A stretch of DNA of 64,000 nt. Source: Paecilomyces variotii (lineage: Eukaryota). Each line of letters opens with the position of its first letter. Within the stretch, counting starts at the first letter, position 1. Location: NCBI GenBank assembly GCA_004022145.1, contig RCNU01000001.1; one strand, written 5' to 3'. This document shows, piece after piece, positions 49,928 through 62,067 of the stretch. The notes under the pieces are model-generated. The model saw nothing but the letters and a program-made list of their open reading frames with translations, was not told where the DNA came from and did not search any database. Made by a program: the position numbers and the translations under genes.

Positions 49928-52900
49928 TCACTCCTCATCTTCCTCCAACGTAGTCTTCGTCGTCAGATGGTAGCGATCCTTACCTTGATGGTCTAGTTCG
50001 TGTTCGATCGCAAGCTTCGACAGGTGCCCGATGATGTTCTCGATCTTCGTGTCTGATTTGCTTCTGCTCTGTCGACCCAGATTATCCAACCAAGGAATGG
50101 CCGTGAGAACGTAGTACACCATGGCAATTATGATCGTGACACCGATCGAATATGCCCAAATCACGACGACTGTCACGATATCCACCCAACCGTCCGCTCT
50201 GAACTTTGCGTGCGAATCAGGATCACTGACTTCTCCAGGACCTGATAACCAGCCGAATAGGCAGAATATCGTCGCAATGACATCCACGCCCAGGATAGCA
50301 CCAACTAGCTGCCATGATGGCCACGTCTTTCCTCCACGGGTCACGAATATCAGCCAGTTTTCTGTCAAGGAGATTTCCAGGAAAAGAATCTCTTGCACGG
50401 AGCCAAAATTCTGGATGATACCACCGTTGGGTAAGAATAGCGTTCCCCGAATGACCCAGGTTCCGAGAGCAAGGAGGATCCCTAACACGATGCTGACAAC
50501 CCATATTTTTGGTAATTGCCATTCTACCGGTCGAAGGTCAGAGTATGCCTTATCATAAGCAACAGCGATTGTGGCAAGGTCGGCGAAGAGTGCCAGGAAT
50601 ACCACCAGGTCCACGACAACAGTCTCGTCGATGATGATCATCGAAGTAACCAGATAGATCTCCAAATGAAGGCAAAGCGCTATACGATATTGGATATAGG
50701 CCTTCATCCGCTGAAAAATCTGTCGTGCAACCTTGACCGCGTCGATAATGGTGCTTAATCCCGGTGCCAAAAGCACGATATCTGCTGCTGCCTGAGCTGC
50801 CTCTGTAGCTCCTTCGACGGCGATTCCGCAATCTGCTTTCTTCAGTGATGGGGCATCATTCACTCCATCCCCAGTCATAGCGGTTAGATGGCCTCGTCGT
50901 TGAAGCATTTCGACCACTTGATATTTATGTTCTGGAAACACTTCTGCAAATCCATCCGCCCTTTCTACTAGGTCGTGCTGTGCTGAGCCCGCCAGGCCTC
51001 CGTGCATCAGTCTCTCGGAATTATAGACCTTTGTTCCTGTTTAGATGTCAGGAATGCTCGGAAAATAGGATAGTGCTGTCAAAGGATTTTGAGAGTGCAT
51101 TCACCACACGCGGGGACTCACCTAACGCCAGCATCTTGCATGTTTCCTTTGCGATGGCGATTGCATCTCCGGTCAGCATCTTCACACTGATTCCCAGGTT
51201 CTGAGCTTCGGCGATAGTATGAGCAGTATCCTCACGAGGAGGATCGAACATCGGATACATCCCAAGCAGTTGCCACGATTCGCCTTCTTTCTGGACAGCG
51301 ACCCCTAGAGACCGAAAACCGCGTCGTGCAAATTCGCGAGCTTTATCTTGATACATCCTCGCTTCTGCCTCGGAGCTATTGGTTAGCCTTAATATCGCTT
51401 TCGGCGCTCCCTTAGCTGCCGTGTAGTGTACTCCGTCAAGAGTGCATTCGCAGGTAATTCTCTTGGAGACTGGGTCGAACGGGCGGAACTTCTCGGTCTT
51501 CCATCCTCTTTGCAAGATTTCCCTTGCCTTTGGATACTGCTTGAGCGTAAGAATGGTGACTTTATCAATCGGGTCCAGGTTCTTAATATTATGTGAGGAC
51601 GCGAGGGCCGCGACTGCCATCATCCAGTTCACGTCCACCCCTTCCGCTACATATGGTTCGCGCACACTAAGCTGGTTCGCTGTCAAGGTGCCAGTCTTAT
51701 CTGAGCAAAGAACATCCACGCCCTTATTGTGACATCAGTAAATTACCATTCATTGCCAAAAGCTGGGACGGCGAGGATATTCGTCAAGCTTACCGCCAAA
51801 CTTTCTATCGCAGTCAACTTCTGCACAATCGCTTTATGCTTCGCGAGGTATGCTGCCCCAACTGCCAAGGTCGTAGTCGTAACAACCGGAAGTCCAACGG
51901 GCACTCCGATGATAAGTAATATTAGGGCGAAATGCAGTAGATTCTGAGACGACTTTTCCGGGGTAGCAATCTTGAGGTGGTGATAGAACCCGCCGATCCA
52001 GGCGGCCAAGATCCAGAACATCACAAGCACGAGCAATGATGTTCCGATTTGGTTCATAATGGCTTTAAAATGTCCCTGGTCCTTTGCACTTTGGACAAGC
52101 GCTGCAGTCTTGCCCACGAAGGAAGATCGAGCACTTGTAATGGCTATGGCGTACGCCTTGCCCCGCTTGCAACCAGTCGTATAGTAGCAGACGTCGCCCA
52201 TGTATTTATCAACCTAAGAAAAGTCAGATCTTCCAAAATAACAGAAAACTATGAATTGTATCTACTGACAGCTAAGGATTCCCCAGTAATCGCTGATTGA
52301 TCGACTGCCACGATGGAAACGGCATCAGCAGTGTGGTGCCCATGATCGTTCTCGTCACCGCTCTCAGGCACATCTTTCTCTTCCGTATCGTACGCCGCTG
52401 AATTTTGCATTTCTTGATATTTCTCGAATCCCGTCGGATCATCATAAGCGGATATCAGACGCACGTCGGCCGGAACCATATATCCTTCCTCGAGGATAAC
52501 CTATATATATCCGCACTTGTCAGCCTCACGCTCGTCAGAACTCCTTGTTCAAAAGTGAGAGACATACGATGTCTCCTGGAACCAGTTCCCTAGCGAGAAT
52601 TTCTTGCGCGACTCCGTCCCGTATTACGTGTGCTCTCATTGCAATATCCCCTTTGAGGCTGGCCACGACGTCGGCAGCTTGCTTTTCTTGGTACCAGCCG
52701 ACAGTCGCATTGAGCATGAGGATCCCAATGATGACTCCGAAGTCAACCCAGTCGCGAAGGCCTGCTGCTAAGAACACCGCCAATTCCATAACTAAACGTC
52801 TCGTTAGTTAGAGAAGCCCATAGATTGTCCACAGATAGATTGTCCACAGCAGCTACACATTGCAGGGTATACGTACCATAGAGAATAGGGCCAGTGAAGT

Positions 52901-53288
52901 ATGAGAGAAACTTGAGGAACATATTTTCCTTTTCGGCGGTCAATTCGTTCCAGCCGGTCTTTTTGCGTCTCTGCTCAATATCATGGGCATTCAAACCCAG
53001 TTTCGGATCAGTCCGAAGCCATTCATCAGGTACTTTGAATCCATCGTCTCCTGAATCAGACTTGCGTCTCCACGGTGTAAACCAACGACGCTTCTTCGAA
53101 GACTCATCGTGTGCAACGTCACTGGCTCCATCATGGCTTGATGATGCATAGCGAGAATCACGATAAGTCGAGATGTACCGGTTTAAAGAGGTATACTCAT
53201 CCAGGGATCCATCATTTTCGAACGCGATAGATCTCTGACGCTCAGCACCTACTGCCCCATTCTCCGCGTCTTCACTTGCAGGAGCCAT
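49928..53288 (-). CDS. Plasma-membrane H+-ATPase (P3A, Pma1/PmaA family), 6 exons
   Basis: DQSAITGESLA, PVGLP, CSDKTGTLT (phospho-Asp), KGAP, DPPR, MLTGD, TGDGVNDAPSLKKAD, YRIALCLHLE and FADLATIAVAYD. All introns have GT..AG and restore the frame. Confidence 0.95.
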
Positions 53289-54611
53289 TGTGTGCAAGAA
53301 CGGACCTGAAGTTAGAAGCTTGAAAGAACGGAGTGAGACAGGGCAGGGTGTGAGTGATTTTCACCGTTCCTTTTGTATGTGCGAAGCCTTGTGTTTGTCA
53401 CGGGACAAGATGCCAACAGATTGGCTGCTTCCGCCTTCACAAAGTACAAGTGAGCATCCATGCAGCACTCTTTATCCGCTAGCTGTGAAGGGGCGTCTAT
53501 CCATCGCTGTCCTCAATTCCGCCTCTACCGCGTTGTTACAGGGATTCTGCATCTGATCTACAGGATGAATTCCAAAGACAGACTTCCCGAGAAGTGTTCG
53601 CGTGATCAAACTATCCATACGCCTGTTCCTTTAGTTTTCCACTTGTTCTGATATGAGAGTTGGAGTCTCTCCTCTAAGCCTTGATTCTCAAATAAAGGGT
53701 TGGTCGGATTGATCTATCGATCCTACACGGTCGCTGAAGGTGGTACGATGTTGCCATTTCAGAGGAAAAGCAAAATCTACATGATGAGCAAATCACAGGA
53801 GGTTCCTCACAAGATTGAGGCAAAAGGGAGGTTCTTGTCATTTCTTACCTTCCTATACTATCGATGTTGGAGGAGACTACGTGTATCAGGCCACCAGAGA
53901 GGGTCTATTGTCCGCAACCACACCCAAAGCAACAGCTTCTAGTTACTTCCATTCTCGATACACAGGGAGAGTCATCTTGTTCGAAGTCGAGTACCGTGTG
54001 ATGGTTCCAGGTTCTATGAGGGATTTATGCCAGCTGATCTCCTCGCTGGTTTTTTTGTGAGCTCTAGACGGAAGATCGGCTGCACAGCATGCTACCTGCG
54101 GATGTTCTTCCGTACCTTGAGAGCTATGGAGTCAAGCTCGTGCCGTAATCTTCACAGTGACTGGAAAGATCCCGCTTTCCATTGCCATAGTGTAGCTTAC
54201 CCCGCGTCGATGGGCTGTGGAACGACACGGTAAGTGGCTGGATATTATCCGTCCCCGGTAATATCCTTCCTATAGGACGCCAAGCAGTAAGGTGTATAAC
54301 ATGGAGCGATACTCCTCAGACATAAAGGTCAATCTATCAGATGGCTCTAATATATTCGCTTTCGGGTTGTACCGATGTAGATGCGGTATTAAAATCATCA
54401 CCGATCGAGCTATCGGTCCTCTTCACAGGAGTCTGACACGAAAATGCCATGACAGACCGGGCACTATGTCAACAACAAAATAGGCGATAATAATCATCGG
54501 TCTCACTGAAGCTTAGTTGAAAACTGCCTTCTCGGTATGGCATCTGTGTGAGAAATCTATTTCCTGGACAGACCCATAAGGATAATACCCCAGATCGGCG
54601 GCGGCTAGATC

Positions 54612-60742: not shown

Positions 60743-61178
60743 TGAGAGATTTTGTGGTTGCTTTTCTTTCCTGGTTGTATGGGTCCTTGGATGTATATGG
60801 CTGTTTATATTCTACTGTAAATACTTTCGTGCTTTCTTGTGGGACATGGTTTTTATGATGACTGTCCCTTTGTTAGCTTGAGCAGGTTCGGGCAATATTC
60901 TACTACCACTACGATATCCGATTTAGTTAGGAACACTCTCAAAATATGTAGATTTACAATTCCACTGTAAAAGGGTTTTAGAAGCACCCATTTGGTCTTT
61001 CAATATAATAATGTACAGTACAAGCCCCATTGAATCGACCCGCGCGACAACAATGAAACTACCCCCCCGCAACAAATAGAATCACATATATACCACAACA
61101 AAGGCTCATTCATCAATCACCGAGTCCAGATGGCGCAGTTGTACAAAGCTAGTGCGACTCCCAGCATATTAAATTAAT

Positions 61179-62067
61179 TCAGGAACCCTCATCGTCATGG
61201 CGAGGAATAATCCCCAATGGAAACCTCACGAATGTCGTATCTGGCAGCATCAACCCAGATCCACCTGCATAGAACGCCAAAGCTGCACATATAACCGTGA
61301 AGGCCCCCCCGGTCTTATTTACTCTCACACTAGCGGCAGGATGCTCCGTCTCGATAAAAGAGGCGATCGAGAGGAACAGGAATGCCAGAACAAGGAAGAA
61401 GAACACCGCGAGAATAGTCAAGTTGGTCTTCAATGCCGCGATAAAAAACAGAAACGACACCGCGCACCAGATGATCAGGTACACGCCGATAGCGAAGGAG
61501 TATGCTCTCATGTCATTGTTGTATGCGGCCTTGACGTCGAGGTATGGGATTAAAAACATCGCATAACTGAGCCAGAAGGCGCCATAGCAGCAGTGAACTG
61601 TCGTACCGAACGTGTTGCCCACGCGCCATTCCATAATTCCAGCTATGAACTGGGCTGTTCCGCCCATGAAGATGGCAAGGCCGAGTATAGCCTGGTTTGG
61701 TCCAACGTTTCCTTGAGGGTTTTCGTTTGGTAATCTGGCAGAGTGGGTTCATGTCAGTTTGCGAGCATGAAGTAAGTACTAGTACCATAGAGGACTGCTT
61801 GTCCTCGAAAAGAACTCACCCTACACCACACTCATAGAGACCAAGTACGAGACTGGTGACAGCGAAACCAAGCAGGCCTAGAGGACCAGGGTTTGCAAGT
61901 TTCTGATACGGGGGAAATGGGACTTGCGAAACCGTAGCCTGATGGGTGGACGGCATTGGGACGTTGGATACTGTCTGAGGGAATCGTGAGACCCTTCCAT
62001 GTCCCCCAGGGTTTGTTTCCTTTCCATTTCCATTGAAGTGGCCTCCGTCTGAATTCTGCAATGACAT
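61179..62067 (-). CDS. GPR1/FUN34/YaaH (Ato/Ady2/SatP) acetate/monocarboxylate transporter, 2 exons
   Basis: The signature ANPGPLGLLGF, then GGTAQFIAGIMEWRVGNTFG..YGAFW, and six hydrophobic segments. The intron is at about 61820-61736. Confidence 0.93.

Follow-up and report, generated by a model that had tools for sequence, protein, structure and literature searches.

Bacterial operons with a fluoride riboswitch place a fluoride channel gene (crcB/Fluc) beside eno, which supplies an extra enolase, and ppa, a combination of anion export with more of the inhibited enzyme. Enolase is inhibited by fluoride with a Ki of ~80 μM, is frequent in these operons, and rose 176-fold in Enterobacter cloacae FRM, according to one report on that strain (PMC11139923). 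In yeast, as one study describes it, fluoride acts largely as an acid stress, the proton pump Pma1p sets cytosolic pH, and the exporters FEX1 and FEX2 are the main defence (PMC7329995). Here, we describe a locus of the mould Paecilomyces variotii in which a second proton pump gene and a second enolase gene stand on either side of the remains of a FEX fluoride exporter gene, next to a gene pair for an Ato-type channel and a small protein that resembles the N-terminal tail of FEX. The locus lies at positions 49928-62067 of the window, by which we mean the whole 64,000-nucleotide stretch that was analysed. We tentatively read it as a partly decayed stress locus directed against fluoride, or hydrogen fluoride (HF), and weak acids.

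The likeness to the bacterial operons is that of a fluoride channel beside an extra enolase. The Paecilomyces locus differs in being eukaryotic, with separate promoters, no riboswitch and a dead channel copy, and in its added P-type proton pump and Ato-type channel. Compared with fungal FEX channels, the relic corresponds to the region of the last helix in the second CRCB domain and the small protein to an N-terminal extension. In a structural study of Candida albicans FEX, the first 75 residues were called unconserved, predicted to be disordered and removed (PMC12808221), whereas the tail motif in Paecilomyces forms a protein family of its own. The FEX relic and the FEX-tail homology are new observations that go beyond an earlier first-pass annotation of this DNA. 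The features of the locus, by position in the window, are as follows.

53288-49928, minus strand: gene for a plasma-membrane H+-ATPase (P3A P-type ATPase) of clade A, a group defined below; six exons, five GT-AG introns, 998 amino acids.
54046-54115, minus strand: intron of 70 bases in the 5' leader of the pump gene, with CT..AC ends; skipped in a contig of run X1 (see below) that also carries pump exons, and seen in X1 only.
54596-55777, no strand assigned: repeat element of ~1.18 kb resembling a miniature inverted-repeat transposable element, with inverted pairs I1 and I2 (40-42 nt) and direct family D1.
55908-56104, minus strand: relic of a FEX (CrcB-type fluoride exporter) gene, its last ~66 codons with one frameshift at 56075.
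57954-59540, plus strand: enolase paralogue, five exons, 433 amino acids, or 462 from an in-frame ATG at 57867.
60278-60742, plus strand: two-motif protein of 154 amino acids, a single open reading frame (ORF) that belongs to no Pfam family and is transcribed.
62067-61179, minus strand: Gpr1/Fun34/YaaH (Ato/SatP-type) channel gene, two exons, 267 amino acids, convergent with the small gene.

Gene models built from the sequence gave four intact genes in this part of the window, and the order of the units is proton pump, dead FEX, enolase, FEX-tail-like protein and Ato-type channel. All ten predicted introns begin with GT and end with AG. Pfam assigned 10 of the 11 exon pieces to the expected families, the exception being the small protein. 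In protein searches, for which single exons served as queries, the closest database proteins for three of the four genes came from P. variotii itself, at 99-100% identity. The pump gene is on the minus strand and the enolase gene on the plus strand, with 4.6 kb from ATG to ATG. The first-pass annotation had called four intact genes within 12 kb, with the pump and the enolase divergently transcribed. The coordinates and integrity were borne out by the models, Pfam and spliced contigs, and the orientation by the models.

The FEX relic was recognized by comparison with a complete FEX protein from a metagenome contig, L002, which is described below. By tblastn, the relic matches residues 455-520 of the 521 residues of this protein (33/57 and 9/10 identical, E 3e-14). 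With hmmsearch --max it scored 48.8 bits and was the sole FEX piece in the six frames of 55700-57900. An intact FEX/CrcB exporter has two CRCB domains in one frame, and what stands here is a relic and not a gene. A Pfam CRCB match on the relic ORF (E 0.009) had first been set aside as chance; since the comparison with L002 FEX confirmed the relic, this weak match is real. The same ORF gave no match among solved structures at E ≤ 10. The interval between pump and enolase holds no annotated gene in the P. variotii strains with consecutive locus tags; strain No. 5 and P. lecythidis have two or three gene models there.

The repeat element lies in the same interval. It contains an internal tandem repeat of three 32-bp units (55244-55370), and contigs of all four sequencing runs that we used switch to unlike sequence at its borders, at ~54607-54647 and at 55761-55765. 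Such breaks are expected if copies of the element lie elsewhere, as for a dispersed repeat. Where contigs of other strains cover the element, C>T and G>A changes account for most of the differences. A Pfam scan of ORFs of 31.9-64 kb revealed neither a transposase nor a reverse-transcriptase domain. The description of the interval as transposon and pseudogene debris thus holds for the repeat with its inverted ends and for the FEX fragment; the enzyme domains of a transposon were not found. Two of the 64 ORFs of 53.2-64 kb had weak Pfam matches at E ≤ 0.05, the CRCB match and one to DUF6238 (E 0.012), and the latter was taken as chance.

The small protein provides the second tie to FEX. It carries two copies of a motif in which LSEVAAPEPV(E) is followed, ~20 residues on, by RHxSLE (RHPSLE; alignment A1). 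It matched no Pfam family and had no usable match in the ESM Atlas. A library of 1.84 billion proteins held 16 relatives at E ≤ 1e-3, all short (86-235 amino acids), and the named carriers are P. lecythidis, Penicillium cinerascens, Penicillium sp. IBT 35674x, P. pulvis, A. floccosus and A. tanneri. When metagenome contigs were scanned for the pattern of the family alignment, five loci emerged, L001-L005. L001 is a stand-alone family member of 131 amino acids. L002 and L003, which are 91% identical and lie on fungal-looking contigs, carry the two-motif module in the first ~90 residues of a 521-residue protein with two CRCB domains (111.5 bits), a FEX fluoride exporter (L002 9992-11557, L003 9992-11560). 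L004, a Rickettsia-antigen-like ORF, and L005, an integrase ORF, look bacterial and are probably chance motif matches.

When the small-protein family was compared with L002 FEX by hhalign, the probability was 96.1 and E was 3.4e-9, over 69 columns that span both motif copies. Two other loci from the same scan served as controls and were far worse (E 0.012 and 6.9e-5). By sequence comparison, then, the small protein and the N-terminal extension of a fungal FEX are homologous. A 13-residue stretch resembling a FEX helix ('FCGC...WV') lies directly after the stop codon of the small gene, in another frame (60750-60788, E 5.7); it has no counterpart behind the L001 relative and was taken as chance. 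The neighbours of the FEX genes on L002 and L003 are genes for a UPRTase, an aldehyde dehydrogenase, a protein with a fungal-rhodopsin domain and a WD40 protein.

The gene convergent with the small gene encodes a putative Gpr1/Fun34/YaaH channel. Its two exons match PF01184 at 154.6 and 29.7 bits, and P0241 is 100% identical to it over exon 2. The N-terminal signature of these channels is NPxPLGL, and NPGPLGL is invariant in the alignment of the family (A2), so that both domain and signature place the protein in this family. Its relatives are named acetate uptake or acetate permease proteins by similarity. In two Penicillium species, the small gene is numbered beside an Ato-type gene (sp. IBT 35674x, N7451_009129/009130; P. 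pulvis, N7503_006454/006455), and the pairing of the two genes is therefore kept across two mould families. A familiar arrangement of this kind is the alc cluster for ethanol utilisation of Aspergillus nidulans, in which alcS, of the Ato family, stands beside small uncharacterised genes; the Paecilomyces locus differs in having neither alcR nor alcA.

The enolase model agrees with public P. variotii proteins, being identical at 431/433 positions to P0121 and fully identical to P0376. Public models have 29 extra residues because they begin at the in-frame ATG at 57867, and the RNA contig starts earlier still, at 57817. All four submitted exon pieces match Pfam, as Enolase_N and Enolase_C. We take S39, H159, Q167, E168, E211, D246, E295, D320, K345, H373, R374 and K396 to be the catalytic and metal-binding residues, and, with the alignment read by eye, all are identical to those of yeast Eno1. 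The domains together with these metal-binding and acid/base residues predict an active enolase (EC 4.2.1.11).

This enolase is not the housekeeping one. Against yeast Eno1, P0121 scored 484 bits, compared with 478 for human beta-enolase and 472 for 7RHV, which a review identifies as the A. fumigatus enolase (PMC11377513). It is, in other words, as distant from A. fumigatus EnoA as from an animal enolase. An orthologue from the same order would score far higher against 7RHV, which argues that the gene is a second copy. The same review gives 79.9-94.3% mutual identity for the allergen-type mould enolases, among them Pae v 6 of P. variotii, and 72-76% identity of these to yeasts (PMC11377513). 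By a hand count on the printed alignment, the enolase of the window is identical to yeast Eno1 at ~228/424 positions (54%), so it is not Pae v 6. An identity with the housekeeping, allergen-type EnoA (Asp f 22, Pae v 6) was rejected, with 472 bits against 7RHV compared to 484 for yeast.

The trees described here are quick searches, with rows chosen by hand from the top matches. The enolase tree has 45 rows, and the end branches of all 44 relatives are long (median 0.18). The copy from the window groups with Rasamsonia emersonii and Thermoascus thermophilus (support 92), and the next group out holds Talaromyces rugulosus and two Aspergillus species of section Fumigati (94). Over exon 4, the nearest relatives are those of Rasamsonia (72% identity) and Thermoascus thermophilus (68%). 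In the species set of one paper on sugar catabolism, EnoA paralogues are reported for only four species (PMC6231085).

The pump has the domain set of a P3A ATPase, Cation_ATPase_N (PF00690), E1-E2_ATPase (PF00122) and Hydrolase (PF00702), and the motifs DKTGT (phosphorylation), TGES and GDGVNDAP can be read in its 998-residue translation. The model is identical to P0001 at 991/998 positions and fully identical to the allele P0363. P. variotii has another pump, of the pmaA type: P0067, with 992 amino acids and a counterpart in strain No. 5, P0034. In public protein clusters, on which all copy numbers given here for P. variotii are based, P0067 is found with identical sequence on 19 contigs, or on 25 when the variants P0066, P0069 and P0092 are included. 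The pump of the window shares 750/984 residues with P0067 and 715/978 with PMA1 of Sugiyamaella, a yeast-type pump.

A tree of 44 full-length pumps was calculated with a quick IQ-TREE run (LG+G4) and rooted on Sugiyamaella PMA1. Its rows were chosen from 120 listed matches and six cluster members, and fragments below 950 amino acids were excluded. The Eurotiales pumps, including that of the window, form one group of 28 rows (support 100) with two clades. Clade B (19 rows, 100) contains P0067, P0034 and one pump for each sampled Aspergillus and Penicillium, including A. fumigatus. Clade A (9 rows, 99) contains the pump of the window with its Paecilomyces alleles, Thermoascus crustaceus, a second pump of A. 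bertholletiae and three Penicillium species (sp. IBT 35674x, pulvis and cinerascens). The pump of the window thus falls outside the pmaA-type housekeeping clade, and the tree places it in an old, patchily retained Eurotiales sister clade of the universal pmaA-type pump. The Aspergillaceae of clade A group together (100), in agreement with taxonomy, and the pattern therefore requires no more than an old duplication with many later losses. On this tree, the duplication is older than the split between Thermoascaceae and Aspergillaceae.

Clades A and B have only 16 fixed-different sites, none of them in catalytic motifs, and the C-terminal tail is retained. Polymorphism within the species did not clearly separate the two P. 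variotii pumps (31 variable sites among 12 clade-A sequences, 14 among three clade-B alleles) and was dropped as a discriminator. The presence of P0067 and P0034 and the score of 472 bits against 7RHV bear out what the first-pass annotation proposed, namely that the locus holds second copies of the pump and enolase genes. The isogene pairs of yeast, PMA1/PMA2 and ENO1/ENO2, are similar in that second copies of both enzymes keep all catalytic motifs. The yeast pairs are unlinked and have separate origins, whereas the Paecilomyces pump duplication predates the split of the two families.

Transcription was examined in contigs of two pure-culture runs, X1 and X4; only contigs were used, and the classification of these records as RNA is a guess. 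Contigs of both runs skip the introns exactly at the modelled coordinates, in the pump (5/5), the enolase (4/4) and the Ato-type gene (1/1), indicating that all four genes are real and transcribed. In both runs, one contig spans the small gene and the convergent Ato-type gene (60020-62169), and the two transcripts therefore overlap at their 3' ends. In X1, the pump transcript runs from ~49782 to beyond 54116, with a leader of more than 800 bases (53289-54116). Contig depths, which are not a valid ranking of genes by expression, were 989 for the pump, 2181 for the enolase and 4726 for the small/Ato contig in X1 (flanks 82-85), and 4-16, 31 and 1024, respectively, in X4 (flanks 3-56). These depths are compatible with a condition-dependent pump and enolase and a strongly expressed small/Ato pair; co-regulation is not proven. 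Two metatranscriptome runs labelled as food fermentation, X2 and X3, gave unspliced, DNA-like contigs that are 95-100% identical to the locus (47000-64000), with many single-base differences in the enolase. These point to DNA of a related strain in the samples and, being unspliced, are uninformative on transcription. Beyond the Ato-type gene, X1 also has a spliced minus-strand contig (62564-63840, intron 62565-62659), in which no ORF exceeds ~100 amino acids and none of at least 45 amino acids matches Pfam; this contig could represent a non-coding RNA, or else a gene that has further introns.

Cluster look-ups showed that the genes for the pump, the enolase, the small protein and the Ato-type channel have consecutive or near-consecutive locus tags in many P. 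variotii strains (for example, DTO212C5_2041/2042/2044, DTO207G8_3767/3766/3765 and DTO027B5_482/481/480). The block is also present in strain No. 5 (GAD94250, GAD94247 and GAD94245 on one 32-kb contig) and in P. lecythidis (tags 4060, 4056, 4055 and 4054). In strain DTO166G4, the pump is on another contig than the remaining genes. About 25 P. variotii contigs are listed for each of the pump, the enolase and the Ato-type protein, which equals the count for the clade-B pump. Judged from these counts and the trees, the locus is fixed and vertically inherited in the P. variotii lineage. In Penicillium sp. IBT 35674x and P. pulvis, the clade-A pump is ~20 accession numbers away from the small gene on the same contig, and in P. 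cinerascens the two are on different contigs. The three named Penicillium species with a clade-A pump are the same three that have the small protein. When co-occurrence of these paralogues in other fungi is considered, as the first-pass annotation had proposed, the small/Ato pair and a looser link of the pump in two Penicillium species are found, and the linkage of pump and enolase was observed in Paecilomyces alone.

The rest of the window contains genes for OPA3, myosin I, a major facilitator superfamily (MFS) transporter, an exonuclease, a Sel1-repeat protein, a chitin synthase, a WD40 protein and a GH17 protein. None of the 72 ORFs of 31.9-49.8 kb has a Pfam match at E ≤ 0.001. A stretch of ~12 kb in which no gene could be recognized lies between the DUF7721 and GH17 genes (31900-43500). 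There, none of 57 ORFs of at least 70 amino acids matches Pfam (E ≤ 0.001), the GC content is 42-48%, and dinucleotide frequencies show no bias of the kind left by repeat-induced point mutation (RIP).

The account that we tentatively prefer, while rating it at somewhat below an even chance, is that of a partly decayed fluoride/HF and weak-acid stress locus, which serves or once served the defence of the cytosol against acid and anion. At low pH, HF or another weak acid would diffuse inward and dissociate into a proton and an anion. The extra H+-ATPase would expel the protons, and the extra enolase would sustain lower glycolysis, and hence ATP for the pump, under the fluoride block of enolase. 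The anion would leave through channels, in the past by way of the local FEX copy that has since been wrecked, and perhaps also by way of the Ato-type channel. The small, disordered protein would be a free-standing FEX N-terminal tail with two motifs of basic residues and serine, acting in the cytosol as a regulator of such channels. Fluoride or HF would be the best-fitting agent, with organic weak acids a close second. We infer every functional step here, including the link to fluoride.

The argument for fluoride is one of accumulation. With the FEX fragment, the relative of the FEX tail, and a pump and an enolase that published work ties to fluoride, four of the five units fit the theme. The F0F1-ATPase is reportedly named as a contributor to the fluoride tolerance of Streptococcus mutans. 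Also in favour are the small/Ato neighbours of two Penicillium species with the clade-A pump on the same contig, the agreement between the named Penicillium species that hold this pump and those that hold the small protein, and the transcription of all four genes, with contig depths in X1 above those of the flanks. A more ambitious version holds that the locus is the remnant of the first eukaryotic fluoride-defence cluster, which united fluoride and anion channels with an extra enolase and pump, and that the small protein is the founding member of a new family of regulators, free-standing FEX tails that govern fluoride or carboxylate channels via phosphorylation of the two RHxSLE sites. We consider this version rather unlikely.

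Several observations weigh against a fluoride locus. The local FEX is dead and the other genes are intact, so these do not need a local FEX. Linkage of the pump and the enolase was seen in Paecilomyces only, and the nearest relatives of the enolase come from species outside those of the pump's relatives; since the holder species differ, there is no single shared phyletic pattern. No gene for a pump, an enolase or an Ato-type channel lies within 10 kb of the FEX genes on L002 and L003. The enolase keeps all its catalytic and metal-binding residues and thus gives no sign of insensitivity to fluoride. In X4, the depth of the pump contigs is as low as 4-16, against 1024 for the small/Ato contig. 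The theme was also recognized after the fact. For moulds, our search of full-text papers returned no paper or experiment that connects one of these genes with fluoride, and none that describes a fungal locus joining FEX with an enolase or a pump, or the small-protein family.

In the strongest alternative, the genes have no functional coupling. They would be independent old paralogues that became neighbours by chance where a conserved chromosome arm is poor in genes and slowly decaying, with the FEX fragment as another dead duplicate. In its favour, the pump and enolase trees each follow taxonomy with patchy retention, and their sets of holders differ. Linkage outside Paecilomyces is loose, at ~20 genes in two Penicillium species and on separate contigs in P. 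cinerascens, and the locus itself has long intergenic DNA with a repeat element and, nearby, the 12-kb stretch in which no genes were recognized. Extra enolase copies are scattered among fungi as well, at least in the species set of one paper (PMC6231085). However, a FEX fragment, a relative of the FEX tail, an extra enolase and an extra pump within 10 kb are unlikely to have met by chance, the small/Ato pair is retained across two families, and the block is kept in all assemblies seen. Chance neighbourhood is a serious possibility, though not one that we would expect to prove right.

The first-pass annotation had proposed a module for organic acids or preservatives, in which the Ato protein moves acetate, the pump expels protons and the enolase provides phosphoenolpyruvate (PEP) and ATP. 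P. variotii is a preservative-tolerant spoilage mould, the Ato-type protein is a full member of PF01184 with relatives named for acetate uptake, and near-identical DNA-like contigs are present in the metatranscriptome runs labelled as food fermentation. The names of the Ato relatives derive from similarity, however, and a module for acetate, sorbate or fermentation without fluoride leaves both the FEX relic and the FEX-tail homology unexplained. In this form we regard it as improbable. The weak-acid theme itself is strengthened by the FEX relic because HF is a weak acid, and the proposal of a preservative-tolerance module now ranks below fluoride/HF. The fluoride reading refines the weak-acid idea rather than replacing it.

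Another possibility is that the extra pump and enolase are self-resistance copies, which shield the producer of a secondary metabolite acting as an inhibitor of both enzymes. Fungi are known to carry duplicates of housekeeping targets next to biosynthetic clusters, a pattern reportedly put to use in resistance-gene-directed mining in Aspergillus, and both the pump and the enolase retain their catalytic residues. The scanned ORFs of the 64-kb window, though, include no polyketide synthase, nonribosomal peptide synthetase (NRPS), terpene synthase or tailoring enzyme. We rate this explanation as very improbable.

Starship-type stress islands of Paecilomyces and Penicillium likewise group accessory stress genes in food-spoilage moulds; the block described here differs in being fixed in the species, with no captain recombinase in view and with vertical-looking trees. 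Cargo of such a giant mobile element, or a horizontally acquired island, would fit the patchy pump clade in Eurotiales and the small repeat inserted at the locus, but is largely refuted and barely credible given genes in ~25 P. variotii assemblies (the same number as for the pmaA-type pump), in No. 5 and in P. lecythidis, the split of clade A into Thermoascaceae and Aspergillaceae as in taxonomy, and the lack of a recombinase domain in the scanned ORFs and of a composition like that left by RIP. The ORFs scanned for DUF3435 or another recombinase numbered 64 + 72 + 12 (31.9-64 kb and the long ORFs of 0.5-46 kb). The earlier suggestions that the unit might be mobile and vary in presence among strains are therefore not upheld: the genes are adjacent across these assemblies and both trees follow taxonomy.

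Should the genes be unrelated neighbours after all, the finding would be an ordinary one. Eukaryotic fluoride resistance is at present accounted for almost entirely by FEX, and one structural study treated the N-terminal tail of this channel as disposable (PMC12808221). If the fluoride/HF reading is true, a locus that combines a FEX copy and a FEX-tail-like protein with extra copies of an enolase and a proton pump would parallel the bacterial fluoride operons and would give a first genetic handle on the rest of the fungal fluoride response. Independent of fluoride, the analysis delimits two paralogue clades of old origin and patchy retention, pump clade A and the enolase clade with its long branches, in a species of importance to food spoilage.

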